64,000 bases of DNA from Candidatus Kerfeldbacteria bacterium (GTDB lineage: Bacteria; Patescibacteriota; Patescibacteriia; UBA10025; JAHIVO01), in NCBI GenBank assembly GCA_047946875.1, contig CP181398.1, forward strand, positions 1,233,329-1,297,328, read 5' to 3'. Both the position numbers and the translations under genes were made by a program. Shown here piece after piece: positions 4,854-39,583 of this stretch. Numbering within the stretch: the first letter of the stretch is position 1; every line of letters starts with the position of its first letter. The notes beneath the pieces are model-generated. The model saw only the letters and a list, made by a program, of their open reading frames with translations. It searched no databases and was not told the DNA's origin.

Positions 4854-5963
4854 TTATATAGGTAAATCAATTGCTTTATTTTCACTAATTTGGTTATTTA
4901 TATTACTACTTTTTTCGTTTTGTAAGGAGTTGTTTATTTCCCAGGTAAGTTTTTTTTCTAATTCAAAATAATCTAAAGATTTTTGCTCTAGTACTGCTAA
5001 ATGTATTGCTTGGTCAGTTTCTGCATTGATAATATCAATTTTTATCTTTAGTAATGGTCCTTGTTTTTGAATTATTCCATAAATGAATAGTTGCGCTCCA
5101 GTTTCAATAGATATTTTTTTGAGAATATCTTTATTAGCAGGATTTGGGATATTATTAAATCCTATATCTAGAGCTGCTTTACTACTTACTTCATCAGTTA
5201 TTATATTAAAAGATTTTAAATAATGAAAAATTTGTTTAAGAGATATCTCAATTTTTTTAGCAATTGGTTTGATATTATCTATATGTAAAGAAAGATTATT
5301 CAGAGGGGGAATAAATAATTTTGGTAATTCGGGTGTATTATTTATTTTTGGTGATGTATGACTTACGCTATCACTTAAACTTGGAGCGGTAGAGGTTTTT
5401 TGAGAAAATGATGCACCGCTAGAACCCGTTTGTCTCATGGGAGCTGTATTAGATGTAGATTTTTCATCTTTTTTTGATGGTTTTTTTCCTTCTTCTTTAT
5501 CATTTTCTGCATTTTCTCTTGCTCGATCTTGTTGATGTAATTTTTTTATTGATTTTTCATGTCGCTTTTGTTTTCTAATTTCTTGGGGGGTAGGCCCGGT
5601 ATCTTTGGCTTGTGAGAGCTCATCTTTTGTTGCTGATTCATATAATTTATTAATACCAATAGTACTAGCTTTACCTTGTTTATTGATACGAAGACCAAGT
5701 TTCTTAGCTGCAATTTTATTTATTTTAAATTGATCACTTCCTTGGGATGATTCAACGACTGAATTAAAAAATTTCTTAGCTTGGTGTTTAGCTATTGTTG
5801 AGGTCTTACCAAGATAAGCAAACTTTTTTAAATTTTTATCTTTTTTCATTAGTGTTTTGAATTTTGTGTCACTAATTTTCTTTCCTGTTTTAGAAGAAAT
5901 TATGCTCTGAGCCATGCCTTTGGCTGTAGTCGCTTTTATTTTTGCTAGATAATCTTTAGCCAT
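4854..5963 (-). CDS. Hypothetical Lys/Ser-rich protein (histone-H1-like low-complexity N-half, globular C-half)
   Basis: 369-aa ORF. N-terminal half is very basic and low-complexity. No family recognised. Confidence 0.45.
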   Translation of the reverse strand: MAKDYLAKIKATTAKGMAQSIISSKTGKKISDTKFKTLMKKDKNLKKFAYLGKTSTIAKHQAKKFFNSVVESSQGSDQFKINKIAAKKLGLRINKQGKASTIGINKLYESATKDELSQAKDTGPTPQEIRKQKRHEKSIKKLHQQDRARENAENDKEEGKKPSKKDEKSTSNTAPMRQTGSSGASFSQKTSTAPSLSDSVSHTSPKINNTPELPKLFIPPLNNLSLHIDNIKPIAKKIEISLKQIFHYLKSFNIITDEVSSKAALDIGFNNIPNPANKDILKKISIETGAQLFIYGIIQKQGPLLKIKIDIINAETDQAIHLAVLEQKSLDYFELEKKLTWEINNSLQNEKSSNINNQISENKAIDLPI

Positions 5964-9401: not shown

Positions 9402-10406
9402 ATGCCAGTTGTAAAAAATAAATTCTATTACAGAGGAATCTTAAAAAAAGCTTATCAAATTGTAAAAGGTAACAAATTCCTATGGGTTTTTGGTTTTTTT
9501 GCAGCCGCATTAGGTGGTGTAGGAGAGCTTGAATCAGTATTTAAAAACTATTCTGACATTGGAGCTTCTTCAGATAATATATTTGGATTACAAACACTTT
9601 ATCAGGGAGGTGTAATTTGGACGATATTTGATAATATTCAAGATTTTTTTGCTAGTTTTCCTTGGCAGGCATTTTTCTTATTATTAATTACAGCAGTAGT
9701 ATTTATTGTAGTTATTTGGTTAGCAATAATATCTCAAATTGCTTTATTTGATGCTTCTAATAAATTATCTAAGAATAAAAAGACTGGCTATGCTGAGAGT
9801 TATAGAGTAGGTAATAAAAAATTTGGATCAGTTTTATTAATTAATGTTGTAGCAAAGATTGTTTTGTGGGGAGTATTCGTTGTTATCGCTGCACCGTTAC
9901 TTGGTTGGTTTTTGATACGAGATAATGTTTGGGGAGCAATATTATTTGTTGTGTTATTATTCTTTGTATTTATTCCAATTTCAATTATTGTTTCATTTAT
10001 TATTAAATATGCTATCGCCTTTATTGTTATCAAAGGCCAAAAAACTTGGGAGGCTGTTAAATCTTCTTGGGTGTTATTCAAAAAATATTGGCTCGTTAGT
10101 ATTGAGATGGCATTAATAATATTAGTTATCGGATTGGGAGTAGGTTTATTTATATTATTGTTAATTGGCTTAGTATCAGTTCCATTCGTCTTAATTGGTA
10201 TAGCTGCATTATTCTTTGGTTCAAGTACTGGATTAGCTGTAGCAGTTATATTGGGTACTGTCGCTTGGTTTGTAGTAATTGCTATAGTTGGTTCTGCTTT
10301 TGCTTCTTTTCAATATACAACTTGGACTTTATTATTTTTAGATTTAGTTGGTGATAAAGCAGAAAGTAAGATTAAGCGATTTATTGATCGTTTTATTAAA
10401 AAGTAA
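9402..10406 (+). CDS. Polytopic integral membrane protein, function unknown
   Basis: AAGGAGGA RBS 6 nt upstream. Six to seven hydrophobic helices. Confidence 0.55.
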   Translation: MPVVKNKFYYRGILKKAYQIVKGNKFLWVFGFFAAALGGVGELESVFKNYSDIGASSDNIFGLQTLYQGGVIWTIFDNIQDFFASFPWQAFFLLLITAVVFIVVIWLAIISQIALFDASNKLSKNKKTGYAESYRVGNKKFGSVLLINVVAKIVLWGVFVVIAAPLLGWFLIRDNVWGAILFVVLLFFVFIPISIIVSFIIKYAIAFIVIKGQKTWEAVKSSWVLFKKYWLVSIEMALIILVIGLGVGLFILLLIGLVSVPFVLIGIAALFFGSSTGLAVAVILGTVAWFVVIAIVGSAFASFQYTTWTLLFLDLVGDKAESKIKRFIDRFIKK

Positions 10407-10583
10407 ATTTTAATAATTAGCAGTCTTAGTTACTCTTGAATTATATTCTGAAAGGTGTAAAGTATATTTTTAAGAGTATGTAATTTGGTTAGTAATAGTA
10501 ATACGTTTATTCATTTGCCAAAGTACTTATTTATTATAAGAAGTGCTTTTTCAAATTATATTAATAGTTTATTTCTTAATGAT

Positions 10584-10680
10584 GCTCGTATAGCCTGCCT
10601 GCCGGCAGGCAGGCTCAGTTGGTTACCCGCCCGAACGACTGGTGTCGTCCAGTCGGGCGGGGAGCACCACCACACTTATC
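10584..10680 (+). pseudogene. Partial copy of tRNA-Ile 5' half (acceptor, D-arm, anticodon-stem start) interrupted by two GC-rich palindromes
   Basis: gctcgtatagc | cctgcctgccggcaggcagg (perfect 20-nt palindrome) | ctcagttggtta | cccgcccgaacgactgg..ccagtcgggcggg (imperfect GC hairpin) | gagcaccacca. The flanking about 27 nt (ttatttcYtaatgatgctcgtatagc) is duplicated at the intact tRNA 140 nt downstream. Confidence 0.5.
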
Positions 10681-10727
10681 TGTTTAAATTTATAGCAAAT
10701 AGTTTAACATTTTTATTTCCTAATGAT

Positions 10728-10804
10728 GCTCGTATAGCTCAGTTGGTTAGAGCACCACGCTTATAACGTGGGGGTCGATGGTTCAAGTCCATCTACGAGC
10801 ACCA
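10728..10804 (+). tRNA. tRNA-Ile (anticodon UAU), CCA encoded
   Basis: Hand-folded cloverleaf. 7-bp acceptor gctcgta/tacgagc. D-arm gctc-agttggtta-gagc. Anticodon stem ccacg/cgtgg with loop cTTATAa. T-arm gatgg-ttcaagt-ccatc. Discriminator A plus CCA. Confidence 0.8.
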
Positions 10805-10877
10805 TTAGTAAATAAATATCTCCTATCAGTTTTGATGTGTTTTTTGTTAAAAAAATCCCCTACACGTATAAACATAT

Positions 10878-10914
10878 AGGGGAAAGGTGGCAGGAAGTTT
10901 TTAGACTTCCTGCC
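10878..10914 (-). repeat. Hairpin repeat copy 1 (GGRAAAGGTGGCAG...CTGCC), probable terminator for the 100-aa gene
   Basis: 10-bp stem ggcaggaagt/acttcctgcc. Shares a conserved 5' flank with the copy at 11298. Confidence 0.45.
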
Positions 10915-10924
10915 GATATTGTTT

Positions 10925-11227
10925 TCAAACGATGGATACGGTACCGATCTGTAGCTCTGGATCGTATATAATATCTACCATGAAGCGTTCATCTACATCG
11001 TCGGAAAATAATCCTCCACCGGTATATACAGCATGTATGACGAACTGTGAAGAATCGGGATGGATAAGCGAGGATGAAATTGAACCTATTGTAAACTGTT
11101 CCCAAATAAATTTGCGGGAACGACCATCATCCTCCGCTTTGCAATTTAGAGGATATCCATTCCACAGCGCTATGCCTAAAGAAATTAAATCAGGACCCTC
11201 GAATATATTGATTGTAGGAATAGTCAT
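10925..11227 (-). CDS. Hypothetical protein (100 aa) in higher-GC islet
   Basis: Minus-strand ORF with GAAAGGA SD 6 nt upstream of ATG. Same orientation as the neighbouring islet gene. The overlapping plus-strand ORF 10932-11249 lacks an SD. Confidence 0.5.
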   Translation of the reverse strand: MTIPTINIFEGPDLISLGIALWNGYPLNCKAEDDGRSRKFIWEQFTIGSISSSLIHPDSSQFVIHAVYTGGGLFSDDVDERFMVDIIYDPELQIGTVSIV

Positions 11228-11297
11228 GATGTATCCTTTCGTTTTATAAAAGTTCTATGTTTTACTTTTTCTCTATTGTCCATAACTATGAACCTCA

Positions 11298-11334
11298 GGG
11301 AAAAGGTGGCAGAGAGGTTTCAAGTCTCTCTGCC
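11298..11334 (-). repeat. Hairpin repeat copy 2 (GGGAAAAGGTGGCAG...CTGCC), probable terminator for the OMP-like gene
   Basis: Stem ggcagagag/ctctctgcc. Conserved flank as copy 1. Confidence 0.45.
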
Positions 11335-11342
11335 GTGAAGAT

Positions 11343-11966
11343 TTAGAAGTTGATCAGTCCGCGGAGCGAGATTTGGTTGTAAGCACCGGGCTGATAATGA
11401 CGCTGACAGGCGGCCATCATTACGAATTTGCCATTCTTGAATGGCACTTTGATGTGTCCACCAATACTCAGGTTGTCCGGAGCGTCGAGAATATGGTCAT
11501 TCTCAATTTCCGCACCGACCACCAACGGTATAGGTAAGCTGTAATCAGCTTCCAGATACAAATAGAAGTAATCGTTGTCCGGTACGTACTCCACATTACC
11601 CCACAAGCAGAACTGCTTAGTGATGTTTAGTGAAGCACGGATGTCAGCGATGAAATGACCCTTTTTTTCGATTAGAGTGTCATTTACCGGTTCATTGACT
11701 ACCAACAGGCCGCCCATGGCTTCGACCGACCATCTTTTTGCATCGTAGCGAGGTCCGACAACTGCCAGATAGGTGCTTGATCCGGGATTCGGCAGGACGG
11801 TCCAACCAGCGATACTCACGTTTGAGTTGTCGTTGATTTTTGTCACACTATGCATAAGAAGCTTGGTAGTGTACTTAGGGCTGGCTGCAAATCCATTAGC
11901 GGTCCACAGCAGGGCGACGATCAGAATTAAGATCATCATTACGATGGTTTGACGTTGTTGATGCAT
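11343..11966 (-). CDS. Exported beta-barrel (OMP-like) protein with C-terminal aromatic residue
   Basis: AAGGAG SD. Signal peptide (ILILIVALLWTANGFAA). Alternating amphipathic beta-strand pattern. C-terminus ...LRGLINF with terminal Phe, as in outer-membrane beta-barrels. GC content visibly higher (about 45%) than surrounding genes. Confidence 0.5.
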   Translation of the reverse strand: MHQQRQTIVMMILILIVALLWTANGFAASPKYTTKLLMHSVTKINDNSNVSIAGWTVLPNPGSSTYLAVVGPRYDAKRWSVEAMGGLLVVNEPVNDTLIEKKGHFIADIRASLNITKQFCLWGNVEYVPDNDYFYLYLEADYSLPIPLVVGAEIENDHILDAPDNLSIGGHIKVPFKNGKFVMMAACQRHYQPGAYNQISLRGLINF

Positions 11967-12270
11967 GTTTCAACTCCTTGGTTTAGTTTTAAAGAACGTT
12001 TAGTTGTTTTTTTAGAGAAATTACTGTTATATCTTATTGCAATTACTAAAATGCCTAATTTCTATTATTAGGAGAGAATTTGGTAATAAGTAGCAAATTA
12101 TCCAATATTACTAGATAAATTACTGTTTAATTACTCTCTCCTCAAAAAGTAACTGTATGGTGAAATAGTAAGTGCTTGACTATAACAATCAATCATATAT
12201 CATTATAGATGAGTGGCAAATATCACCACATGGTGATAAATACCACCACATACTATCCCCTTTTGATTTT

Positions 12271-13035
12271 ATGTATACAGATGTTCTCCAGCAGATAGGT
12301 TTGTCAAAAAACGAAGCAAAAATTTATGAAGCTTTGCTTTCTTTGGGACCTTCAAATATTTCCTCAATATCAAGCGTAGGAAAAGTTAATAGGAGAAATG
12401 TTTATGACTCAATGAATAATTTGTTGAAGCGTAATCTTGTTATTGTATTGAGAGATACGAAGGGAAAATTATATAAAGCTGCAGAACCGAAAAGGTTGAA
12501 CGAAATGTTGCAATCACAGAAACAAAAAATATCAAAAATACTTCCTACTATAAAAAGTTTATACAATACAAAACTTCCCGCGGAGCAGGCATACATAACA
12601 AGAGGTGTGGAAGGAACAAAAAATTTTTGGAATTTTGTAATGTCCCAAGATGGACCTGTGTTATTTATTGGAGGGAAGGGAGCTTGGCACGATAAGGATC
12701 TTGAAGATGAAAGAAAAAATTATTTTAAAACTTGTAAAATAAAAGGAATAGAAATAAAAGGATTGTTTGACCATATAGTTTATCAAAATCAGAAGGAAGT
12801 TTATTCGGAATACAATCCGGAACATATAAGGTTTTTCCCGAAGGATTACTCAACTAGCGCTTCAATAGATATTTGTGCGGATAGGGTTATAATGTTTCCA
12901 ATGCCAAAGGAAAAAACCGTTCAAAATACGACCATATTTAACATAGTCAGTCAGCCATTAGCAGACTCATACAGAAAATGGTTTGATCATTTATGGGAAA
13001 ATGCAATACCAACTAATGAAATGAAGAATGGATAA
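12271..13035 (+). CDS. TrmB-like HTH transcriptional regulator, paralog 1
   Basis: N-terminal winged helix (LSKNEAKIYEALLSLGPSNISSIS...VNRRNVYDSMNNLLKRNLV) matches the TrmB family. The ORF-track start at 12172 adds 33 non-conserved residues, so ATG 12271 is chosen by analogy with paralog 2. Confidence 0.55.
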   Translation: MYTDVLQQIGLSKNEAKIYEALLSLGPSNISSISSVGKVNRRNVYDSMNNLLKRNLVIVLRDTKGKLYKAAEPKRLNEMLQSQKQKISKILPTIKSLYNTKLPAEQAYITRGVEGTKNFWNFVMSQDGPVLFIGGKGAWHDKDLEDERKNYFKTCKIKGIEIKGLFDHIVYQNQKEVYSEYNPEHIRFFPKDYSTSASIDICADRVIMFPMPKEKTVQNTTIFNIVSQPLADSYRKWFDHLWENAIPTNEMKNG

Positions 13036-13783
13036 ACAAATAGTACAAATATTAGACGACGTTGGATTGACAAGCAGTGAAGCTAGGGTGTATTTAGCAA
13101 TTTTGGAGCTTGGAAAAACAAACGTATCCAATGTTGCAAAAAAAACTTTGATAAACAGAAGGAATGTTTATGATACTTTAAGTACTCTATTGGATAAGGG
13201 TTTAATTTTCCAAATTGTTGGGGATAAAGAAGGGGTATACGCAGGAGTTGATCCTGATAAATTGATAGAATTAATACAATCAAAAGAAGTATCCTTGGAA
13301 TCAGTAATGACATCCATGGAAAGGGATTATGAAACAAAGAAGGAAAGTGAACGAGCAGTAATTTATAAAGGGATTGAAGGTTTTAAAAGTTATATGGAGG
13401 ATATTTTGGAAACCAGAGAAGATATTTATTGTCTTGGGGCAAAAGGTGGTTGGGCATACGAAGGACTTGGTGAATTTAAAGATTGGTTTGAAAAAGAAAG
13501 AATAAAGCGAAAAATAAAGGTATATAACTTATACGATAGTGAAATGAAAAAGTATTTAAAGGGCAAAAAGCCAATGTATGATATTTTTTCAGAACATAAG
13601 TTTTTACCCGAGAAGTACTCAACAGATTCAGCAATGGATGTTTTTGGGAGCAGTGTGGTTACGTTTACAGGACTTGCCCCGGAGATAGTAAATGATGATG
13701 TTACGTTGTTTGTTTTAGTAAGCAAGGAAGTATCGGAGTCTTGGAAAACATGGTTTAAATTTCTTTGGGATAACAGTAAATAA
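13028..13783 (+). CDS. TrmB-like HTH transcriptional regulator, paralog 2
   Basis: LTSSEARVYLAILELGKTNVSNVAKK..INRRNVYDTLSTLLDKGLI. The C-terminal domain is co-linear with paralog 1. Overlaps paralog 1 by 8 nt. Confidence 0.55.
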   Translation: MDKQIVQILDDVGLTSSEARVYLAILELGKTNVSNVAKKTLINRRNVYDTLSTLLDKGLIFQIVGDKEGVYAGVDPDKLIELIQSKEVSLESVMTSMERDYETKKESERAVIYKGIEGFKSYMEDILETREDIYCLGAKGGWAYEGLGEFKDWFEKERIKRKIKVYNLYDSEMKKYLKGKKPMYDIFSEHKFLPEKYSTDSAMDVFGSSVVTFTGLAPEIVNDDVTLFVLVSKEVSESWKTWFKFLWDNSK

Positions 13784-17424: not shown

Positions 17425-18363
17425 TCAGTATATGAAATGTTGGAGCGGTCCAAGATGTCGGACAACGCCATGTCCATAAAAGTCTGCTATATTTTCATCC
17501 GGATTGTATCCGAGCTGTAATTCCATCTCTTTTTTATCAAAACTGACATAGGGGATTAAGGAATAATGTCCGCTATTTTGCATTCGGGAACGAAATCCAG
17601 ACAGTAACATATTAGGGACACGGACCGTATTCATGAAGCAGGCATAATAAGGCATATAACCAAGGAGTTGTAATCCTTCCCACGACATAAGTTTCCAGCC
17701 ATCTTTGAGCTGACTTTTTACTTCACTAGAAGTAACTCCTTTGTAAGAGGCGCCAACACCATGATGCCAATCTTTTTCCGGTAGCTCAATGACGTTATAT
17801 CCTATAGGCATATCAAGAGCCATCTTGTCGGTACGGAGAAGTTCTTTTTGAAAAAACTTGTCTGTTGCGATTGCACCTTGGTACATCCAACTAATTGTGA
17901 TCCACGCAAGTTGTGCGTTAAGATGAGCGTCTCCAAAATTAAAGATAACAAGAGCGTTTTTTGGCCAACGACCAGATTTTACAGATTTCTTAATTGACTT
18001 TTTGAGCTCGTCCTTCTCTTCGGTTTTGGGCATACTTTTTGTTTTGAGAATCAAATCGACCGCTGTCATACATTTCATGCACATAAGTCCAGCAAATCGA
18101 TTAAATCCCCACATTTGAGTTTGTGGATCAAAGAAAGGGGTGTCTTTTTTACCACTGTAATAGTCAGCGATTTGAGTGATGTAGTACATCTCTTCCAGTA
18201 TTCCCCAAAACATTGCACCACGTAGCAAAAACCTGTCTTTGAATTCATCGAACTCATCTGGATGCATGATCGGTACTTCAACACCAGCTTGAATCCCTAA
18301 ATCCGAAACACTCTTCATCAACAGAGCTCCTAAAGGATCTCCACCTTTGAGTAACTTATTCAT
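17425..18363 (-). CDS. Hypothetical Trp-rich protein (312 aa)
   Basis: Complete ORF. No motif I can assign. GC appears somewhat elevated. Confidence 0.5.
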   Translation of the reverse strand: MNKLLKGGDPLGALLMKSVSDLGIQAGVEVPIMHPDEFDEFKDRFLLRGAMFWGILEEMYYITQIADYYSGKKDTPFFDPQTQMWGFNRFAGLMCMKCMTAVDLILKTKSMPKTEEKDELKKSIKKSVKSGRWPKNALVIFNFGDAHLNAQLAWITISWMYQGAIATDKFFQKELLRTDKMALDMPIGYNVIELPEKDWHHGVGASYKGVTSSEVKSQLKDGWKLMSWEGLQLLGYMPYYACFMNTVRVPNMLLSGFRSRMQNSGHYSLIPYVSFDKKEMELQLGYNPDENIADFYGHGVVRHLGPLQHFIY

Positions 18364-28881: not shown

Positions 28882-31563
28882 ATGCGGATTATTATATTAA
28901 TAATACTATTGGCAGTAACGATGTTTTTTTCTGTCAGTAAACCGGTAGATGCTATAATTAATGTTAGTAGTTGTGGTGTTCTTGCCGTGGCAGATGAAAC
29001 TTATTTGCTGACACAGGACGTTTCCTCTGTGGGAACTTGTTTTACGATCGGCGCAGATGATATTATACTTGATCTTAATAATCACACCATAACTTATGGT
29101 ACTGGTACTGGAGAATATCGTTATGGCGTTGCATTGCCGCCGCACTACATTCGCCGTGACTTTTTCCCAGATAGTGCTATTCCGGACAGCTCTTTCAATG
29201 AGACTAAAGAGCGTATTCGTATACAAAATGGTTCAATCGTTCAAGGAGGTGGTGATGGTGAAAATAGTCATGCGATTTTTGGCTATGCTAGTCATTATAT
29301 TTATATTCACAACCTAACCATAACGGTACACGGACCTGACACACAGAATATTGGTTTTACCTATTCAGAAAATATTAATGTCTATGATAATCTACTTAAT
29401 AATAATTCTACTGTGGTAACAAATCGGCATCAAGGTCGCAGTGTTGTTCAAGTGACAGAAACTTACGGTGGCAATAATTTTTATAGAAATACTATAACTG
29501 GTGGTCCGCAGTTCGGGTTACGCATTAATGGATATGATACGGTAGATTACGATACAGATTATATTTACGACAATGTGATTCGCCATAATGCCACAGTGGC
29601 AAATCCATATGGAATTTCGGCAGGTGCAAAAAATATGAAAGTATACAGCAATATGATTGAAGCGCAGAATGGACGAGGCATTCATGTATTAGGGGATAAT
29701 CAGGAGATTTACAATAATACGATTACTGTCAAGGAAGGAAGTAATAGCGAGTATTCCACTGGATGGTCTCATGGTATAAAAATTGAAGAAGCGACGAATG
29801 CAAAAGTACACAATAATACTGTTACCGCTATTGCTGAAGATGGCTTTGGTCATGCTTATGCTTTGGATATGACTATTAACGAAGGAGCTAATAATGAGGT
29901 GTATGAAAATATTTTTACTGCCACCACTACCACATCTGGTTTACATGCCGCCGCCGCTCATATTACTGTAGTAAATGAAAACAGTGGCACTGATATTCAT
30001 CATAATATATTTCGTACTAATAATCGCCATATCAGTACATCGTGGGAAAGCCCAGCATATGTTTTGTTTCGTTCAAATACTTTTGAAATTCAGGGAACGC
30101 CAATAAATTATAATACGTTGTGGTTTGAGACAGGTGATAATCCGTCTCATGGTCTGGAATTATTGGATAATACTGCTGCTACTGGCGTTTCATTTGCTGA
30201 TGTGGGCTACCGTCCCGCAGGATCAGAATATAGTTATGAAACACAGCAATATTTAAATTTAGTGGTACAAGATGCTCAGGGTCAGGTTATTCCCGATGCC
30301 GTCATTTCGATTAGCGATGTTGGTGCAAACACGGTAGCTAATGGTACTACAAATACAAACGGTACAGCGCTTTTTGCTTTACGAACACATTACTTTACTG
30401 GTAAACCAGTCGTTGACACAGGATATATACCTCATCAGGTCACAATATCACTTACCGGGTATAAAGCTTCAACAACCTTAGTAACACTGGATAGTTCCAA
30501 ACAACTTGTCGTTACTTTGACTGCTACTAACTCAAGTACTAATTCTAATACAAATGAATCAATCTATATTGCACCGACACCAGAATCAACTCCAGGAGTA
30601 GTCAGGGAAGTCGATGAAACACCTATTGCGTTAGCAAGTTCATTTTTTGTATATAATAGGAATTTACGTGGGGGCTATCATATTGCCGTTGGGAATGTCA
30701 TTGGTGATAGTAAGTATGAAATTATTACTGGTACAGGGGGTGGCATGGGTCCACATGTTCGGATATTTAATAACCAAGGAACGCTCAAAGCTCAATTTTT
30801 TGCATATAGCTCAGAGCTAAGAAATGGCGTTACTGTAACAGCATGCGACATTGATGGAGATGGATATGATGAAATAATTACTGCCCAGGGTCCTGGCGGC
30901 TGGCCATTAGTAAAAATATTTGATGGAGATGGTAATATAATTAATAATGGATTTCGTGTTCTTGATGGAGAGTTTTTAGGTGGAGTAAATCTTTCCTGTG
31001 GTGATACGAACGGTGATGGAATTAGTGAAATAGTGGTTGCTGCGATGAAGGGCGGAGGTCCACATGTTTTGGTATATAATTCAGAAGGCACTATTCTAAC
31101 TAATTTTATGGCATATGATCAAAATTTCAGGGGAGGCATTAATATCTCTACTATTGATATGGATGGTGACGGCAGGGATGAAATTGTAACTGGTCCTCAA
31201 TTTGGCGCTCCTCATGTTCAAATATTCCAAATACGCCCAAATGAACTAAAAAGGTTGTCGCCAGGGTTCTATGCTTTTTCTCCCGAATACAGAGGAGGAG
31301 TCTCAGTTGCAGGAGTTGATACGGATGGAGATGGAGAAAAAGAACTTTTGGTCGGAGTTGGGGAAGATGCTCAATCTTTGATTAAGAAATACAACATTAG
31401 AGAAGAGCTGGAAGGATCATTTTATGCTTATGGAGAAAATTTTCTTGGAGGAGTAAATTTAGGTGGAGGAGATGTGGATGGTGATGGTTTAGATGAAATT
31501 ATTATTATCCCAAGAAGTGGCGGTGGAGCTAATGTTAGGGTTATTGAGGGAGAGTTAATTTAG
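28882..31563 (+). CDS. Exported protein: signal peptide, right-handed parallel beta-helix repeats, prealbumin-like domain, C-terminal about 8x FG-GAP/VCBS-like repeats (beta-propeller)
   Basis: N-terminal signal peptide. Repeated NNTIT/HNNTVT beta-helix turns. Eight about 50-aa repeats F.AY...FRGGV.V..GD.DGDG.DEI...P..GG.PHV.IF. Confidence 0.75.
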   Translation: MRIIILIILLAVTMFFSVSKPVDAIINVSSCGVLAVADETYLLTQDVSSVGTCFTIGADDIILDLNNHTITYGTGTGEYRYGVALPPHYIRRDFFPDSAIPDSSFNETKERIRIQNGSIVQGGGDGENSHAIFGYASHYIYIHNLTITVHGPDTQNIGFTYSENINVYDNLLNNNSTVVTNRHQGRSVVQVTETYGGNNFYRNTITGGPQFGLRINGYDTVDYDTDYIYDNVIRHNATVANPYGISAGAKNMKVYSNMIEAQNGRGIHVLGDNQEIYNNTITVKEGSNSEYSTGWSHGIKIEEATNAKVHNNTVTAIAEDGFGHAYALDMTINEGANNEVYENIFTATTTTSGLHAAAAHITVVNENSGTDIHHNIFRTNNRHISTSWESPAYVLFRSNTFEIQGTPINYNTLWFETGDNPSHGLELLDNTAATGVSFADVGYRPAGSEYSYETQQYLNLVVQDAQGQVIPDAVISISDVGANTVANGTTNTNGTALFALRTHYFTGKPVVDTGYIPHQVTISLTGYKASTTLVTLDSSKQLVVTLTATNSSTNSNTNESIYIAPTPESTPGVVREVDETPIALASSFFVYNRNLRGGYHIAVGNVIGDSKYEIITGTGGGMGPHVRIFNNQGTLKAQFFAYSSELRNGVTVTACDIDGDGYDEIITAQGPGGWPLVKIFDGDGNIINNGFRVLDGEFLGGVNLSCGDTNGDGISEIVVAAMKGGGPHVLVYNSEGTILTNFMAYDQNFRGGINISTIDMDGDGRDEIVTGPQFGAPHVQIFQIRPNELKRLSPGFYAFSPEYRGGVSVAGVDTDGDGEKELLVGVGEDAQSLIKKYNIREELEGSFYAYGENFLGGVNLGGGDVDGDGLDEIIIIPRSGGGANVRVIEGELI

Positions 31564-31583
31564 AATTTGATAAAATTATAGAT
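31523..31583 (+). repeat. Direct repeat copy B (61 nt)
   Basis: gtggagctaatgttagggttattgagggagagttaatttagaatttgataaaattatagat, overlapping the stop of the 893-aa gene. Confidence 0.8.
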
Positions 31584-31632
31584 TATAGAAATTTAGGTAA
31601 ATAATTAAGGGATTAAAAGTTAAAAATAAATA

Positions 31633-31661
31633 TTGACAAAAAGTCAAAAATAAGCTATACT
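31633..31661 (+). promoter_or_regulatory. Consensus sigma70 promoter about 220 nt upstream of the 1307-aa gene
   Basis: TTGACA - 17 nt - TATACT. Confidence 0.55.
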
Positions 31662-31880
31662 AGATAATGAATTTAGCTTATTTTAGCTACAAATTTAGTT
31701 TATACGTAATTACTTTGTAATAATGATTACCATTACTTGTCAGGTACCATTAACAAAAAGTAGCGTCAATAATAGGGAGGAATAAATCCACATTTTTTGT
31801 GGTTTTTTTAATATAAATAATTTCCGCCAGAGGCGGATCAGGCTCTGCCTGAAACTTAATTAATAAATAGATAAAAAAGT

Positions 31881-34800
31881 ATGTCAAGAAAAAAAATCTT
31901 GAAATCCATTCTACACTTTGTGAAAGTAAGTGTTTATATGGTGGTCATGTTTACTATGACTTTTTCTTATTCATTCATTGGAGCTCCGCAAGCTGATGCT
32001 GTCACTACTGGAACAATTACCGGTAGGATAATGGCCGGAGGAAGTCCGGTAGATATTGGAGATGTTGGTTTGAATTTAGTAAATGCTCCAGGGGTAGACC
32101 CAGTAGGTACAAATCCTGATGGAACGTTTACATTTATTGATGTCCCTGTAAGCTATTATCAGTTAGATACTCATATTAATGACACGGTTGCATTAGCTGG
32201 TTATATGAATATTTCAGTATCAAATATTGAAGTAACGGCTGGTCAAACAACAGACGTTGGAGATATAGCATTAACACAAGCCACCAAGACAATTACAGGT
32301 ACGGTTACCAGACAAGGCACAGGAACAGCTGTTGTAGATGCTCAGATTAGTGCGTTTCCTTTTGAAGGAATGGGATCTGGCGTGAACGCTACAACTGATA
32401 GTAATGGTGATTACACATTATATTTAACAGGTGGAAAATGGGGCTTAAATGTGTCTGGTGGTTATGATGAGGAACATAATCCAATTCCAGTTGATTGGAT
32501 TTATTCTGGCATGCCACAAGATCAAAATTTTGCCGATGATAATACAGTAGAATCAAGAGTTGCAAATTTTGAAGTAGTTACCGCGAATTCTTTTGTGAAT
32601 GGTAAAATTGTATATCCAAATGGCACACCAAAAAATGATTTAAATATTGATCTGTTTAGTTTTTCCGGTGGTGGTGCTTTTGGAAGGACAGATTCTAGTG
32701 GTAATTTTACAATAAGGACTGCAGCTGGAAATTTTGAATTAAGCGCTTGGTTCCCACATGATGAGCAGCAATATTCATTACCAAGACAGCAAATATCTGT
32801 TGTGGCCAATCAAACGTTAAATCTTGGCACTATATATATTGTAGAAAAGACATCTCAAATAAAAGGTGTTGTTAAAACCTCAACTGGAATACCAGTAGAA
32901 AATGTGAATGTAAGTGCATTTAGTATGATGGGATCCGGACCTGGTGATAATGCATGGACACAGACAGCCGCCGATGGTTCTTATTCATTGTATGTAACTT
33001 CAGGAATGTGGGGAGTTGATGTCCAAACAAATCCGGAATCAGTTTGGGTGCCGGATGGAACCCAAAAACAATATCAGGTAGCGGAAAATCAGATAATTTC
33101 TAATGCAAATTTTACACTAATAAAAGCTGACGTTACTATTAATGGTAGGATTGTAAATACACAAGGCGTGTTACAATCGGATTTTTTCGGTTATGCTAAT
33201 GTAATGGATCAAGATATGCAGTTTGGTCCGGGACCGGGCAAGTTTTTCGGTGGGCAGATTGGTGGAGGAACTTTTCAGATTAAAATACCTTCTCAAGTCA
33301 TGACAAAAATAATGGTTACCACATTTGTTGAGCCTGGTAGTCCATACTCAATTCAAGAGGATATAACATTAACAGTTGCACCAAATGGTACGTATGATGT
33401 TGAATTAGTATTAGTCCCTAATGATGCAGTATTAACGGGAACGGTTAAAGATCAAAAAGGTAATGTCATATCTGGGTTTGAATTTGGTGATGTGTTTGTG
33501 ATGGGCGAAAAGGGACAATGGAATAATGCTTTTATTAACCCAGATGGTACTTATACTATGTCTCTAAGAAGTGGTACTTACGATGGTCGCGGTGCATTTA
33601 TTCGTGGTGGTGGATATATTGACAAGCCTCCACAATTTGAAGATGGTGGGGTTGTCATAAAACCCGGCACAACAATTTGGAATCCGGTGGTATATAAAGC
33701 TGATGCAAAAATTAATGTTACTATAAAAGATCCGGATGGAAATTTACTGGGTGGATTTGGATTTGCTTTTGCCCATGAAGATTTTGAGGGGGATCCAGGA
33801 ATCGGATTTAAAGATTCCATGGAGGCTGGGGGAGAGATTTTAGGAGGTAAAGGATCAATAAATGTTGTTGGAGGAAAAACTTATTTGGTTGGAGCTCCAC
33901 CTCCACCAAAATATGATTCAGAGAACTGGATGTCCCCTGAGGAACAAGAAGTGTTTGTAGCTGCAAACGGAACAGCAAGCGTAGTATTGCAATACAAGAA
34001 AGCTGATGGTGTTATTAAGGGCACCGTGACATTTGAAGATGGCTCACCAATACCTTTTGGATTCATTAGTGGATGGTCAGAAAATGGTGCGAATTCTGGT
34101 ACTCCAAATTTTGGCTCAACATTCAGCCTTCCAGTAACAAAGAATGGTATCTGGCACATAAATGCGGATACTTTCAGTGGCTCAGAATATTTTACCAGCG
34201 GAGAGACAGTTATAAAAACTCCTGATTCAACAGGATTTGTAGTGGAAAGAAATTTTGTTTTGAGTAAGTCAGATTTTCTTTTTCCTGAACCAAAATGTGC
34301 AACTTGGGATTCTACCCAACCAAAAGTTATAAATTTATCTGATGGTACATCTTTGACATTTCCTGCTAGGTCATTGGCAACAAGCGGTAATGTAACTGTT
34401 TGTGCGCAGCCAACAGTCAATCTGAAGCCGGAAAAAACTAAAAAACCAGCAAAAGGATTTGGTTATACTTTGACAGCTACTGATTCCAGCAATCAGACAA
34501 TATCTACTTTTAATTCGGCAGTTACTATAAGCATGAAAGTAGAAGCGGATAAATTGGCTGAATTGGGAATAACTACAGATGATTTATTGCCAGCCTTTTT
34601 TAATACCACAACTAATAAATGGGACACAGTAAATAATGCTACTTATGATGCAGTAAACGATTTACTTTCGTTTACTACTACTCACTTTACTGATTATGCG
34701 ATTGTAACAGGTGTGACTATTACTGGTAGTGGTCCTGTAGCTTCTGATATTATTGCCAGTCCAGCAAATAATGGAGGTCCACATGTAACGGTATGGGACT

Positions 34801-35804
34801 ATGAAGGAAATATTAAAACAAATTTCTTTGCTTATCCTTCAAATTTACGAATGAGTATTCAGACTGGCGTGGGTGATTTTGATGGAGATGGTATAAATGA
34901 GATTGTCACTATTCCTGGTGAAGGTTTTGCTCCACAAGTAAGAGTATTTAATCTAGAGGGTCAGCTTGTAGATCAGTTTTTTGCATATCAAACTCATTTA
35001 AGATCTGGTTATAATATGGTAGTTGCAGATATTGATGGTGATGGTAGTGATGAAATTATTACGGCACCTATGGCCGGTGAAGCTCCTCATGTTAGGATCT
35101 TTAATGGTAAAGGAGAAGTAGAAAATCAATTTTTTGCCTACGACGAAATGTTTAAAGGAGGGGTTAATTTGACAACTGGTGATGTAGATGGAGATGGTAA
35201 TATTGAAATAATTACTGCGCCTGCTTCAGGTGGCTCACCTGATATTAGAATCTTTAATAGTGATGGTTCTCAGGTAACTGGCTTTTGGGCATATTCTTCT
35301 GCTTTACGTGGTGGCTTTGATGTTTCTACTGGTGACTTAAATGGAGATTCGGTTGTTGATATATTAGTAACTCCTGGTGAAGGATTTGGTCCACAAATTG
35401 CTATGTTCACAGGAGATGGAACATTGATTGGAAGATTCATGGCATTTGCTGATACATTTAAGGGTGGCATTAATGCGGTCGTAGGGGATGTTACTGGCGA
35501 TTCGCAAAGTAATATAATTGTTACTCCGTTAAGTAATGGTGGTCCACAAGTTAGAGTATTTGATTACCAAGGTAATCATGTGTCACAGTTCTGGGCCTAT
35601 GCATCAACTTTAAGAGGTTCATTTGTTCCTTTAATATCTGACATTGATCAAGATGGAACAAACGAAATTGTAATAGCACCAGGTAATGGTTTTGGACCTC
35701 ACTTACGTGCATTTGAGTATGATGGAACTATTACTAGTAGTTTCTTTACTCATAATGAAGGTTATCGAGGAGGTATAAATCTAATGAGTATACCCACTTT
35801 TTAA
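31881..35804 (+). CDS. Large exported protein: N-terminal signal/anchor, multiple prealbumin/CarboxypepD_reg-like domains, C-terminal about 9x FG-GAP/VCBS-like repeats
   Basis: 1307 aa. Hydrophobic N-terminus, AQA cleavage-like site. Repeated about 90-aa Ig-like modules (TGxV.D..G.PI..A.V). C-terminal repeats paralogous to those of the 893-aa protein. Confidence 0.75.
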   Translation: MSRKKILKSILHFVKVSVYMVVMFTMTFSYSFIGAPQADAVTTGTITGRIMAGGSPVDIGDVGLNLVNAPGVDPVGTNPDGTFTFIDVPVSYYQLDTHINDTVALAGYMNISVSNIEVTAGQTTDVGDIALTQATKTITGTVTRQGTGTAVVDAQISAFPFEGMGSGVNATTDSNGDYTLYLTGGKWGLNVSGGYDEEHNPIPVDWIYSGMPQDQNFADDNTVESRVANFEVVTANSFVNGKIVYPNGTPKNDLNIDLFSFSGGGAFGRTDSSGNFTIRTAAGNFELSAWFPHDEQQYSLPRQQISVVANQTLNLGTIYIVEKTSQIKGVVKTSTGIPVENVNVSAFSMMGSGPGDNAWTQTAADGSYSLYVTSGMWGVDVQTNPESVWVPDGTQKQYQVAENQIISNANFTLIKADVTINGRIVNTQGVLQSDFFGYANVMDQDMQFGPGPGKFFGGQIGGGTFQIKIPSQVMTKIMVTTFVEPGSPYSIQEDITLTVAPNGTYDVELVLVPNDAVLTGTVKDQKGNVISGFEFGDVFVMGEKGQWNNAFINPDGTYTMSLRSGTYDGRGAFIRGGGYIDKPPQFEDGGVVIKPGTTIWNPVVYKADAKINVTIKDPDGNLLGGFGFAFAHEDFEGDPGIGFKDSMEAGGEILGGKGSINVVGGKTYLVGAPPPPKYDSENWMSPEEQEVFVAANGTASVVLQYKKADGVIKGTVTFEDGSPIPFGFISGWSENGANSGTPNFGSTFSLPVTKNGIWHINADTFSGSEYFTSGETVIKTPDSTGFVVERNFVLSKSDFLFPEPKCATWDSTQPKVINLSDGTSLTFPARSLATSGNVTVCAQPTVNLKPEKTKKPAKGFGYTLTATDSSNQTISTFNSAVTISMKVEADKLAELGITTDDLLPAFFNTTTNKWDTVNNATYDAVNDLLSFTTTHFTDYAIVTGVTITGSGPVASDIIASPANNGGPHVTVWDYEGNIKTNFFAYPSNLRMSIQTGVGDFDGDGINEIVTIPGEGFAPQVRVFNLEGQLVDQFFAYQTHLRSGYNMVVADIDGDGSDEIITAPMAGEAPHVRIFNGKGEVENQFFAYDEMFKGGVNLTTGDVDGDGNIEIITAPASGGSPDIRIFNSDGSQVTGFWAYSSALRGGFDVSTGDLNGDSVVDILVTPGEGFGPQIAMFTGDGTLIGRFMAFADTFKGGINAVVGDVTGDSQSNIIVTPLSNGGPQVRVFDYQGNHVSQFWAYASTLRGSFVPLISDIDQDGTNEIVIAPGNGFGPHLRAFEYDGTITSSFFTHNEGYRGGINLMSIPTF

Positions 35805-39175: not shown

Positions 39176-39583
39176 TTAGTTGCATCTATTCATGATCATG
39201 GGAACTAGTCGACCAAGTATTTGACTGGGTTTGTTAATATTTCCATTTGGGGAAAAGACGGTCTGTTCTTGTTCACGAAGAACGAGATAAGGACCATTAC
39301 CTCCGTTAAGGGAAGCGTGAATTGTGCAGCGATAAGTACCCTGACCAAACTGTGGTTTTTCATGGCGCCACATCATGCAGTGTTCTAGATTTACTGATTC
39401 AAGATATTCGCTGTCGACGTTTTTTAAGATGTTAAACGCTTGATTGGTGTCCCATAACTCGAATAAATTTTGGCCAGTTGCATCGATGAAAATAAATAAA
39501 ATGTGCTGTTTCGGTTTGTTTGGCAGCTTTATTATCATTCGCCAAAACGTTTTTATCGGTTTTTTGTTTTGTTCTTTTGCCAT
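39176..39583 (-). CDS. Hypothetical protein (135 aa)
   Basis: Strong GAGGAGGAG SD upstream of ATG. No family recognised. Confidence 0.55.
   Translation of the reverse strand: MAKEQNKKPIKTFWRMIIKLPNKPKQHILFIFIDATGQNLFELWDTNQAFNILKNVDSEYLESVNLEHCMMWRHEKPQFGQGTYRCTIHASLNGGNGPYLVLREQEQTVFSPNGNINKPSQILGRLVPMIMNRCN

Follow-up and report, generated by a model that had tools for sequence, protein, structure and literature searches.

A predicted outer-membrane-type β-barrel and its probable operon beside tRNA-Ile in Candidatus Kerfeldbacteria

Why should a bacterium from a group described as single-membraned carry, next to a tRNA gene, an unusually GC-rich gene for a protein that looks like an outer membrane β-barrel? 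The question is raised by a 64-kb stretch of contig CP181398.1 (1.31 Mb), which belongs to a metagenome-assembled genome (MAG) of Candidatus Kerfeldbacteria, part of the Candidate Phyla Radiation (CPR, or Patescibacteria); the whole stretch is called the window below, and coordinates are positions within it. A first-pass annotation had read two minus-strand genes beyond tRNA-Ile, encoding 207 and 100 amino acids (aa), as a GC-rich islet with a barrel of the outer membrane protein (OMP) type, unexpected if the host were CPR-like and suggestive either of horizontal acquisition from a diderm or of a novel use of a barrel. The host to which the 207-aa product is assigned is indeed CPR, and the element of surprise stands. 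From its predicted fold and surface, we regard the 207-aa product with high confidence as a membrane-type OMP-like β-barrel. Our preferred reading of its setting, to which we give a probability of roughly 0.6, is that the "islet" forms the variable stretch, distal to the promoter, of an operon conserved in Patescibacteria and is not an integrated island.

The 207-aa protein begins with a signal peptide at about residues 1 to 27 (MHQQRQTIVMMILILIVALLWTANGFA/AS). As read from the sequence, its n-region is basic, its h-region spans 17 residues, the residues at −1 and −3 of a plausible ...GFA/AS cleavage site are small, and there is no lipobox. A hydrophobic run of at least 10 residues within the first 45 residues is shared by 46 of the 52 sequences in the family alignment (A1), which bears out the signal peptide proposed at first pass. 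The protein ends in ...QISLRGLINF, against a family consensus of QxWxRxVxNF, with hydrophobic residues at −3, −5, −7, and −9. The final residue is F in 32 of the 52 members and L in 12, confirming the suspected Phe-type β-signal, and judged by its sequence the C-terminal pattern of the family is of the classical OMP β-signal type.

The family itself was delineated with HMMER, run exhaustively against 1.84 billion cluster representatives; of the 63 proteins recovered at E ≤ 1e-3, 31 reach E ≤ 1e-10. Nearly all relatives are 180 to 210 aa long and align end to end, and alignment A1 displays the motifs GPRY, GxETEN, AYQFH, and a C-terminal W.R.V.NF. The closest relative among these representatives is only 39% identical; its locus (L062; relatives are cited by such locus handles) has a low-GC, CPR-like context carrying the same hairpin module as the window. 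All members that bear an organism name trace to MAGs of Patescibacteria or to MAGs labeled "bacterium" with a window-like gene order. For a few members, the contig is probably not from CPR (L013, at 72.6% GC, and L011). CPR therefore does not account for the whole family, whose distribution would be compatible with an ancient origin in diderms.

Neither Pfam nor NCBIfam matched the 207-aa protein, so that the known OMP families to which the first-pass annotation had pointed supplied no match. PHROGs and PADLOC returned nothing meaningful for the 207-aa or the 100-aa protein. Across the 52 family members, the sole Pfam match was a weak one to Porin_4 (7.8e-5) in a single member, and the family profile matched no Protein Data Bank (PDB) sequence at E ≤ 10. 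A word-index protein search retrieved nothing but the query when given the 207-aa protein and just three proteins when given the family profile. We conclude that the 207-aa protein is a member of an undescribed family of OMP-like barrels: a known fold, a new protein family, and an unexpected host.

AlphaFold2, supplied with the family alignment, predicted an all-β meander at a mean predicted local distance difference test score (pLDDT) of 93.6 and a predicted template modeling (TM) score of 0.81; from the single sequence, the pLDDT was only 39.6. DSSP assigned 11 strand segments joined by turns of 3 to 7 residues. The strands alternate hydrophobic and polar residues, and together with the all-β model this upholds the β-strand periodicity seen at first pass. 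In a Foldseek search of the PDB, all top matches were outer membrane barrels of 10 to 18 strands. The best was KdgM (TM score 0.48 normalized to the query and 0.56 to the target), and others included general porins, AlgE, FadL, OmpG, and a designed 10-stranded transmembrane barrel. The viral structure library BFVD likewise yielded porin- and OMP-type proteins, and of the matches listed, 50 from the PDB and 50 viral, none was a soluble barrel.

Family-wide, the strands have two contrasting faces. The hydrophobic face has a mean Kyte-Doolittle hydropathy of +1.73, 3.7% charged residues, and high entropy (that is, it is variable), whereas the polar face has a mean of −0.77, 21% charged residues, and lower entropy. 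On the polar face, E152 and E154 are invariant, and H38, E81, D107, R109, Q187, and R201 are nearly so. A variable hydrophobic face combined with a conserved polar face argues for a membrane-embedded barrel with a polar lumen, the opposite of a soluble lipocalin-type protein. The OMP-like barrel put forward at first pass is thus supported by the confidence of the model, by the structural matches, and by the asymmetry of the strand faces.

Among solved structures, the predicted barrel most resembles the monomeric, 12-stranded KdgM/NanC porins (PDB 4fqe and 4pr7), with which it shares a mature chain of about 180 to 215 residues, very short loops, a charged lumen, and a terminal aromatic residue. 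It differs from them in lacking detectable sequence similarity (no Pfam match; nothing found in the PDB by the profile at E ≤ 10), in its 11 DSSP strand segments as opposed to 12, in a CPR host without a known outer membrane, and in its regulators, which are TrmB-type, whereas that of KdgM is KdgR. KdgM, too, is under a sugar-responsive repressor. With OMPs that depend on the β-barrel assembly machinery (BAM), such as OmpX, OmpW, PagP, and OmpA-type proteins, the 207-aa protein has in common a Sec signal peptide, an antiparallel meander barrel (here predicted), a hydrophobic belt with aromatic residues, the hydrophobic positions −3, −5, −7, and −9, and the terminal Phe. Unlike them, its family belongs to no curated OMP family and its host group is described as single-membraned.

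The barrel gene does not stand alone. The features of the locus, from the tRNA gene to the second regulator, are as follows (ORF, open reading frame; nt, nucleotides).

10728 to 10804, plus strand: tRNA-Ile (UAU; TAT in DNA), called by ARAGORN; Rfam tRNA model, 75.8 bits
10845 to 10918, minus strand: terminal copy of the two-hairpin module (terminator scan, fold, and covariance models)
10925 to 11227, minus strand: orphan ORF of 100 aa, NCBI locus tag ACNFW9_06140 (ORF list)
11234 to 11239, minus strand: weak Shine-Dalgarno sequence AAAGGA of the 100-aa ORF (read from the sequence)
11259 to 11338, minus strand: internal copy of the two-hairpin module, about 80 nt (folds and covariance model)
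11343 to 11966, minus strand: barrel gene, 207 aa, NCBI locus tag ACNFW9_06145, annotated as a hypothetical protein (ORF list)
11974 to 11979, minus strand: Shine-Dalgarno sequence AAGGAG of the barrel gene, with a 7-nt spacer to the ATG (read from the sequence)
12192 to 12219, minus strand: sigma-70-like promoter of the barrel gene (promoter scan)
12213 to 12251, no strand assigned: putative palindromic operator (repeats and five-genome alignment)
12271 to 13035, plus strand: TrmB-family regulator 1 (Pfam TrmB, E = 1e-15)
13028 to 13783, plus strand: TrmB-family regulator 2 (Pfam TrmB, E = 2e-14)

Both minus-strand genes are thus where the first-pass annotation had placed them. Its claim of strong AAGGAG-type Shine-Dalgarno sequences on both holds for the barrel gene and fails for the 100-aa ORF, which has only the weaker AAAGGA.

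The gene order around the barrel is what distinguishes a resident operon from an import. In L007/L025 (Patescibacteria, isolate SO_2017_GW1_267), the genes run ClpP, RNaseY, YmdB, HU, TrmB, TrmB, barrel, two orphan ORFs, AIRS, tRNA-Ile(TAT), membrane protein, FtsH, and S1, an extended order that is that of the window. We take this shared order as the decisive evidence that the barrel gene is not a recent import. The tRNA-Ile(TAT) gene forms the conserved far boundary of the variable stretch, with an orthologous tRNA at the equivalent place in L007/L025. Between the window and L007, the flanking orthologues are 56 to 85% identical, the TrmB genes 59 to 63%, and the barrel 35%. In five lineages (the window, L002/L006, L005, L007, and L015), the barrel gene is preceded by a divergent TrmB gene or gene pair. 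The flanking genes include no integrase, and no recombinase lies within about 10 kb in either direction, nor did the distal boundary (11967 to 12270) yield any convincing direct repeat of the tRNA 3′ end. Of the marks by which a tRNA island is recognized, only atypical GC was present. We reject a tRNA-integrated genomic island in view of the synteny with L007/L025, the lack of an integrase among the flanking genes, and the lack of a convincing tRNA 3′-end repeat.

Two further observations concern the tRNA gene itself. Its UAU anticodon is an uncommon way of reading AUA. Beside it, at 10568 to 10680, lies a decayed duplicate of tRNA-Ile(TAT), comprising the 5′ flank and the 5′ half up to the anticodon loop. 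The copy is broken by two GC-rich palindromic insertions, AGCCTGCCTGCC|GGCAGGCAGGCT and CCCGCCCGAACGACTGG...CCAGTCGGGCGGG, and the segment has 57.5% GC in a spacer of 20% GC. In L007, a decayed tRNA-Ile copy riddled with GC-rich hairpins likewise lies beside the intact tRNA (13130 to 13420 of that locus). These copies suggest small GC-rich palindromic insertion elements and repeated rearrangement at tRNA-Ile.

The control region upstream of the barrel gene is conserved: about 60 nt of the TrmB-barrel intergenic region are conserved in five genomes (alignment A5) whose barrel proteins are only about 35% identical. The barrel promoter has the −35 box TTGCCA (12219 to 12214), a 16-nt spacer, and the −10 box TATGAT (12197 to 12192), matching at 10 of 12 positions in the promoter scan and implying a 5′ leader of roughly 220 nt. 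The layout TTGCCA-N16-TAnnnT is kept in L002, L005, L007, and L015. Overlapping the −35 box is the operator core TATCAC-N6-GTGATA (12221 to 12238), flanked by GTGG...CCAC half-sites. A second sigma-70-like promoter, TTGACT-16-TATCAT, faces TrmB on the plus strand, back to back with that of the barrel and with overlapping −10 boxes (12176 to 12219); because the divergent promoters overlap, one operator could control both.

Regulator 1 starts at ATG 12271, its orthologues beginning at an equivalent Met; the ORF list overextends it to a GTG at 12172. It is 59% identical to its L007 orthologue. Regulator 2 is paralogous to it, begins before regulator 1 has ended, and is 63% identical to its own L007 orthologue. 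The same regulator pair stands beside the barrel gene in L002/L006, L005, and L007. Archaeal sugar-sensing TrmB proteins are longer than about 250 aa. The archaeal regulators TrmBL1/Tgr bind the TGM motif TATCAC-N5-GTGATA (PMC4158304). The bacterial proteins resemble archaeal TrmB/TrmBL1 in having a TrmB winged-helix domain, and their locus offers the same hexamer half-sites in a putative operator that overlaps the promoter, as well as a divergent arrangement that suggests autoregulation. They differ in the spacer (6 nt here, 5 nt in archaea), in the bacterial host and sigma-70-type promoter, and in being two paralogues of about 250 aa in which Pfam recognizes no sugar-binding domain. By analogy with the archaeal proteins, we infer that the two TrmB paralogues bind the palindromic operator, repress the barrel promoter, and regulate their own expression.

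The window has 33.5% GC. The barrel gene has 47.6%, with a GC fraction at third codon positions (GC3) of 0.558, and contains the highest-GC 600-nt stretch of the window, which starts at 11351; the 100-aa ORF has 40.6% and a GC3 of 0.347. Against the 41 other ORFs of the window (mean GC3 of 0.218; standard deviation [sd], 0.052), the barrel gene has a z score of 6.5. When its amino acid sequence was recoded with the codon usage of the window, the expected GC3 was 0.227 (sd, 0.025), so that the observed value lies at z = 13, and the 100-aa ORF lies at z = 3.8. The raised GC of both genes over flanks of about 30% GC, reported at first pass, is accordingly confirmed, being strong in the barrel gene and intermediate in the 100-aa ORF.

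The excess is not peculiar to the window. In ten loci whose host contigs range from 33% to 73% GC, the GC3 of the barrel gene exceeded the mean of its neighbors every time, with z scores of 0.55 to 6.55 and a rank of 1 to 4 in each. In the eight CPR-like loci, the excess lay mainly in C over T at two-fold pyrimidine-ending codons, with C/(C+T) raised in all eight (0.54 to 0.79, versus 0.16 to 0.43); G was not consistently raised over A in these loci. In L062, a second low-GC genome, the barrel gene and its orphan ORF have 46 to 47% GC beside a gene of 28% GC. Because the barrel gene is above its neighbors in 10/10 loci, we conclude that the GC excess is a family trait, not the mark of a single transfer or of import from a diderm. 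Its cause may be selection at synonymous sites (acting on expression or mRNA stability), recurrent replacement of the allele by those of higher-GC relatives, or a combination of the two. The first-pass proposal of a tRNA-adjacent islet acquired from a diderm is not supported, given this family-wide excess, the shared synteny, the TrmB genes and operator in five lineages, and the Patescibacteria names of the members.

Downstream of each gene lies an RNA element. That each is followed by a related hairpin had been noticed at first pass and proved correct, the hairpins being part of a two-hairpin module of about 80 nt. The sequence GGRAAAGGTGGCAG occurs exactly twice in the window, at 10880 and 11299. 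With 2 mismatches allowed, this 14-mer carries no significance of its own, 2 matches being reached by 9 of 100 shuffles. Each copy abuts a 9- to 10-bp stem with compensating changes, and a covariance model of the hairpin element scored both copies at E values of about 1e-13 to 1e-15 and found the same element in two other genomes. Hairpin 1 (HP1) consists of GGCAGAGAG, the loop yUAAAAAC, and CUCUCUGCC (plus-strand positions 11308 to 11334 in the internal copy). In hairpin 2 (HP2) of the internal copy, the pyrimidine tail CCUUUUCCC is predicted to pair with a downstream AGAGAAAAAG, enclosing a small inner stem. Across copies, CCUUUUCCC pairs with a downstream GGAGAAAAAG, and the inner-stem sequence differs between copies yet pairs.

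The consensus structure has 26 pairs, 8 of them with compensatory double changes. In the four full-length copies, 95% of cells are paired, versus 47 to 60% in slid controls, and 9 pairs are changed on both sides, versus 1 to 3 in the controls; the score of the module was reached by 0 of 500 shuffles. Of the two covariance models, R1 and R2, the second scores the internal copy at E = 3e-16. The terminal copy scores at E = 6e-15 with R1 and 3e-5 with R2, and it folds at −36.8 kcal/mol (z = −9.5). Its HP1 occupies plus-strand positions 10889 to 10914, and its HP2 (CCCCUAUAUG...UACGUGUAGGGG, 10856 to 10883) is followed by U7, which together make a canonical intrinsic terminator in the terminator scan. 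Copy 3 of L007, followed by U6, is a canonical terminator as well. In internal copies, a tract of U4 to U5 is embedded in C residues and is predicted to pair within HP2.

The module is specific to this locus. The window has two copies, after the barrel gene and after the 100-aa ORF; L007 has three, after the barrel gene and after orphan ORFs of 169 and 142 aa; and L062 has one, between an upstream orphan ORF and the barrel gene, in permuted order. Searched with R1 and R2, 233 kb of related loci gave these six copies and no others. A weak covariance match downstream of the L009 barrel gene proved to be an unrelated terminator. A hairpin-pattern scan of GTDB genomes and metagenomes returned only the L007 genome and ordinary terminators in unrelated bacteria, which speaks against a genome-wide or widespread repeat family, and Rfam, run on 10300 to 12300, reported the tRNA only and no family matching the module.

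The ORFs that the module separates share nothing that we could detect. The 100-aa ORF matched only itself among 5.8 billion proteins and had no Pfam, PHROG, or PADLOC match, and an all-against-all BLASTP comparison of the small neighboring ORFs of the window and the other genomes revealed no relationships. The idea of a conserved partner protein is rejected on this absence of homology to ORFs at the equivalent place elsewhere. The frame of the 100-aa ORF has the best codon usage score among the stop-free frames, marginally above an antisense ORF. It is probably the second cistron of the barrel operon.

In placing a GC-rich stem and then a U-rich tail where a cistron ends, the module resembles stem-loop mRNA stabilizers of the repetitive extragenic palindromic (REP) type and intrinsic terminators, and ordinary terminators in unrelated bacteria have an almost identical HP1 sequence. 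It differs from these in its conserved loop yUAAAAAC, in a second, covarying hairpin that pairs the U tract with the Shine-Dalgarno-like GGAGAAAAAG, and in being restricted to one locus, with six copies in three genomes and no Rfam family. As we read it, the module would terminate or stabilize the upstream transcript and damp the downstream cistron. A likeness to integron cassettes (an ORF plus attC) is also apparent: the ORFs are short, mostly orphans, and atypical in GC, each has a conserved folded element behind it, and their content and order vary between genomes. There is, however, no IntI or other recombinase nearby, and the array here has its own regulated promoter and conserved flanks. 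No RYYYAAC/GTTRRRY core sites were seen at the module ends (judged by eye on the alignments). We reject an integron cassette array on the absence, by eye, of attC core sites and of a recombinase within about 10 kb on either side; the module may conceivably act as a cassette junction.

Taken as a native operon, the locus would work as follows. The two divergent TrmB regulators (12271 to 13783) would keep the barrel promoter repressed until a ligand releases them, as in the archaeal family. The first cistron would yield a Sec-exported protein of about 180 mature residues, predicted to fold into a small antiparallel barrel of roughly 11 to 12 strands with a hydrophobic, variable outside and a polar or charged, conserved interior, and to carry the OMP-type signal at its C terminus. 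Each cistron would end in a two-hairpin module that ends or stabilizes the upstream transcript and damps the downstream, lineage-specific orphan, and the last copy may serve as the canonical terminator of the operon.

Several findings weigh against this reading of protein and locus. The DSSP strand count of 11 is odd, which is unusual for OMPs (an even number, from 8 to 26, is expected), and the structural match to any solved barrel is moderate, with a TM score of about 0.5. Imaged CPR cells have a single membrane (PMC8080830; PMC8871954), which leaves an OMP-type barrel with no known destination membrane. The covariation statistics of the module rest on four full-length and two terminal copies. 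With respect to GC, both G- and C-ending codons are raised in the barrel gene of the window relative to same-strand genes, and HU shows no codon bias (z = −0.2). Codon selection alone is thus insufficient for an anomaly of this size here, translational selection as the sole cause is rejected, and some lateral replacement in the window is likely.

The alternative that survives best builds on that last point. It holds that the operon is native and that its promoter-distal part, the barrel allele with its orphan ORFs, has been swapped repeatedly among related Patescibacteria with the conserved flanks, the modules, or both as cassette junctions, under diversifying selection on an exposed protein, so that the GC excess would reflect recent import from a relative of 45 to 50% GC. 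The low identity of the barrel (35%) between flanks of 56 to 85% accords with such swapping, as do the mutually unrelated ORFs between modules, the permuted order (orphan, module, barrel) in L062, and the concurrent rise of G- and C-ending codons. Furthermore, two low-GC genomes, the window and L062, hold an islet of 46 to 48% GC, a value that matches the GC of L007-type genomes. We nevertheless consider repeated swapping unlikely as the full account. Transfer that is random with respect to GC predicts some barrel genes below the GC of their genome, and 0 of 10 were; no recombinase is linked and the module is without integron attC core sites; module copies occur in three genomes only; and rapid divergence of an exposed protein would give 35% identity equally well.

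A second alternative concerns the protein, which could be a soluble, secreted or wall-associated barrel (lipocalin-, avidin-, or YceI-like) with its hydrophobic face lining a ligand cavity. Such a protein would suit a single-membrane host without an obvious target membrane, and alternation of hydrophobic and polar residues along strands is found in soluble barrels too. We judge it quite improbable, given that a variable, scarcely charged hydrophobic face and a conserved polar face with invariant Glu, Asp, Arg, and His are the reverse of what is expected of a soluble barrel, that eleven to twelve strands of 10 to 17 residues make a barrel too wide for a packed hydrophobic core, that the matches listed by Foldseek comprise outer membrane barrels and no soluble ones, and that the C-terminal pattern fits an OMP signal. 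The lipocalin-like outcome, named beforehand as the finding that would overturn the barrel, was not borne out, and the barrel reading stands.

Finally, a recent diderm-derived genomic island beside tRNA-Ile, with the OMP gene as a nonfunctional or repurposed passenger, could draw on the codon usage anomaly of z = 13 in the highest-GC stretch of the window, on the adjacent tRNA with its decayed duplicates here and in L007 (suggesting past rearrangement), and on the probably non-CPR members L013 and L011, but it is very improbable, being largely refuted by the same syntenic position in L007/L025 and further opposed by the TrmB linkage and conserved operator in five lineages, the exclusively Patescibacteria names of the members, the missing integrase and distal tRNA repeat, a closest relative at only 39% identity that itself has a low-GC CPR-like context with the same module, and a GC3 excess in 10/10 loci.

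Returning to the native operon with a membrane-type barrel, what might the barrel do? The most likely role, as we infer it, is that of a small solute channel or another membrane-embedded envelope protein. A solute channel is suggested because the best structural match, KdgM, is a 12-stranded sugar-acid porin, because the TrmB family controls sugar uptake in archaea, and because one operon of a relative holds a solute symporter and an asparaginase gene. In that operon (L013, 6680 to 9871; probably not CPR), the homologous barrel gene runs into the start of an SSF sodium:solute symporter gene, the asparaginase gene comes next, and a HisKA_3/GerE two-component pair lies upstream, a context suggestive of a part in solute uptake.

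Where such a barrel would reside is a separate matter, and the 64-kb window, out of a 1.31-Mb contig, contains no outer membrane biogenesis genes. Of the two possibilities raised at first pass, a novel use of a β-barrel would be a more interesting reading than diderm import. In its boldest form, which we offer tentatively and think somewhat doubtful, a single-membraned Patescibacteria lineage (Kerfeldbacteria and relatives) would conserve and tightly regulate a bona fide OMP-type barrel, and the module would be a new structured RNA marking where exchangeable orphan-gene cassettes join. Of three possibilities, one would then be true: (a) these cells have an unrecognized outer lipid layer or a BAM-independent route of assembly; (b) the exported barrel inserts into the outer membrane of the host cell to which the bacterium is attached, as a porin supplied by the parasite to tap metabolites; or (c) the barrel inserts into the bacterium's own membrane from outside.

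CPR bacteria make up a large share of bacterial diversity, and for most of them a life attached to other cells and a single membrane are assumed; their nutrient uptake and host contact are largely unknown. A conserved, predicted barrel under putative regulator control provides a concrete handle on both. Its location would reveal an outer lipid barrier in CPR, assembly without BAM, or a porin planted by an episymbiont in its host, and the protein is small enough to express. Because Pfam has no match, members of the family are currently annotated merely as hypothetical. The locus also offers a clean, putative bacterial example of an archaeal TGM-type TrmB operator and a new candidate structured RNA module. 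Moreover, extreme local GC that is a property of a gene family, and not of recent foreign origin, is a caution for GC-based island calling.

Other parts of the window deserve mention. Two ORFs without a Pfam match, at 17425 to 18363 and 39176 to 39583 (both minus strand), have raised GC3 values, 0.377 for the first (z = 5.8 relative to host codon usage) and 0.390 for the second (z = 4.5). Where the first lies, L007 has other genes (a radical-SAM gene and a 194-aa ORF), making this another variable spot. Two syntenic hypothetical proteins, at 4854 to 5963 (L007, 18066 to 19253) and 3719 to 4135 (L007, 19988 to 20452), are 36% and 27% identical between the two loci, as divergent as the barrel, among neighbors that are 56 to 85% identical; they may be further fast-evolving envelope proteins.

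Third codon positions are strongly asymmetric between strands throughout the window: in plus-strand genes, G/(A+G) is about 0.25 to 0.33 and C/(C+T) about 0.06 to 0.20, and in minus-strand genes, the values are about 0.07 to 0.18 and 0.25 to 0.35. The pattern is consistent with the window lying in a single replichore and having a uniformly positive GC skew. Lastly, the regions 28882 to 35804 and 53361 to 62261 encode very large predicted proteins, among them a 2966-aa ORF and two proteins with FG-GAP repeats (893 and 1307 aa, one of which also has CarboxypepD_reg); these large proteins are candidates for cell-surface or host-contact roles.

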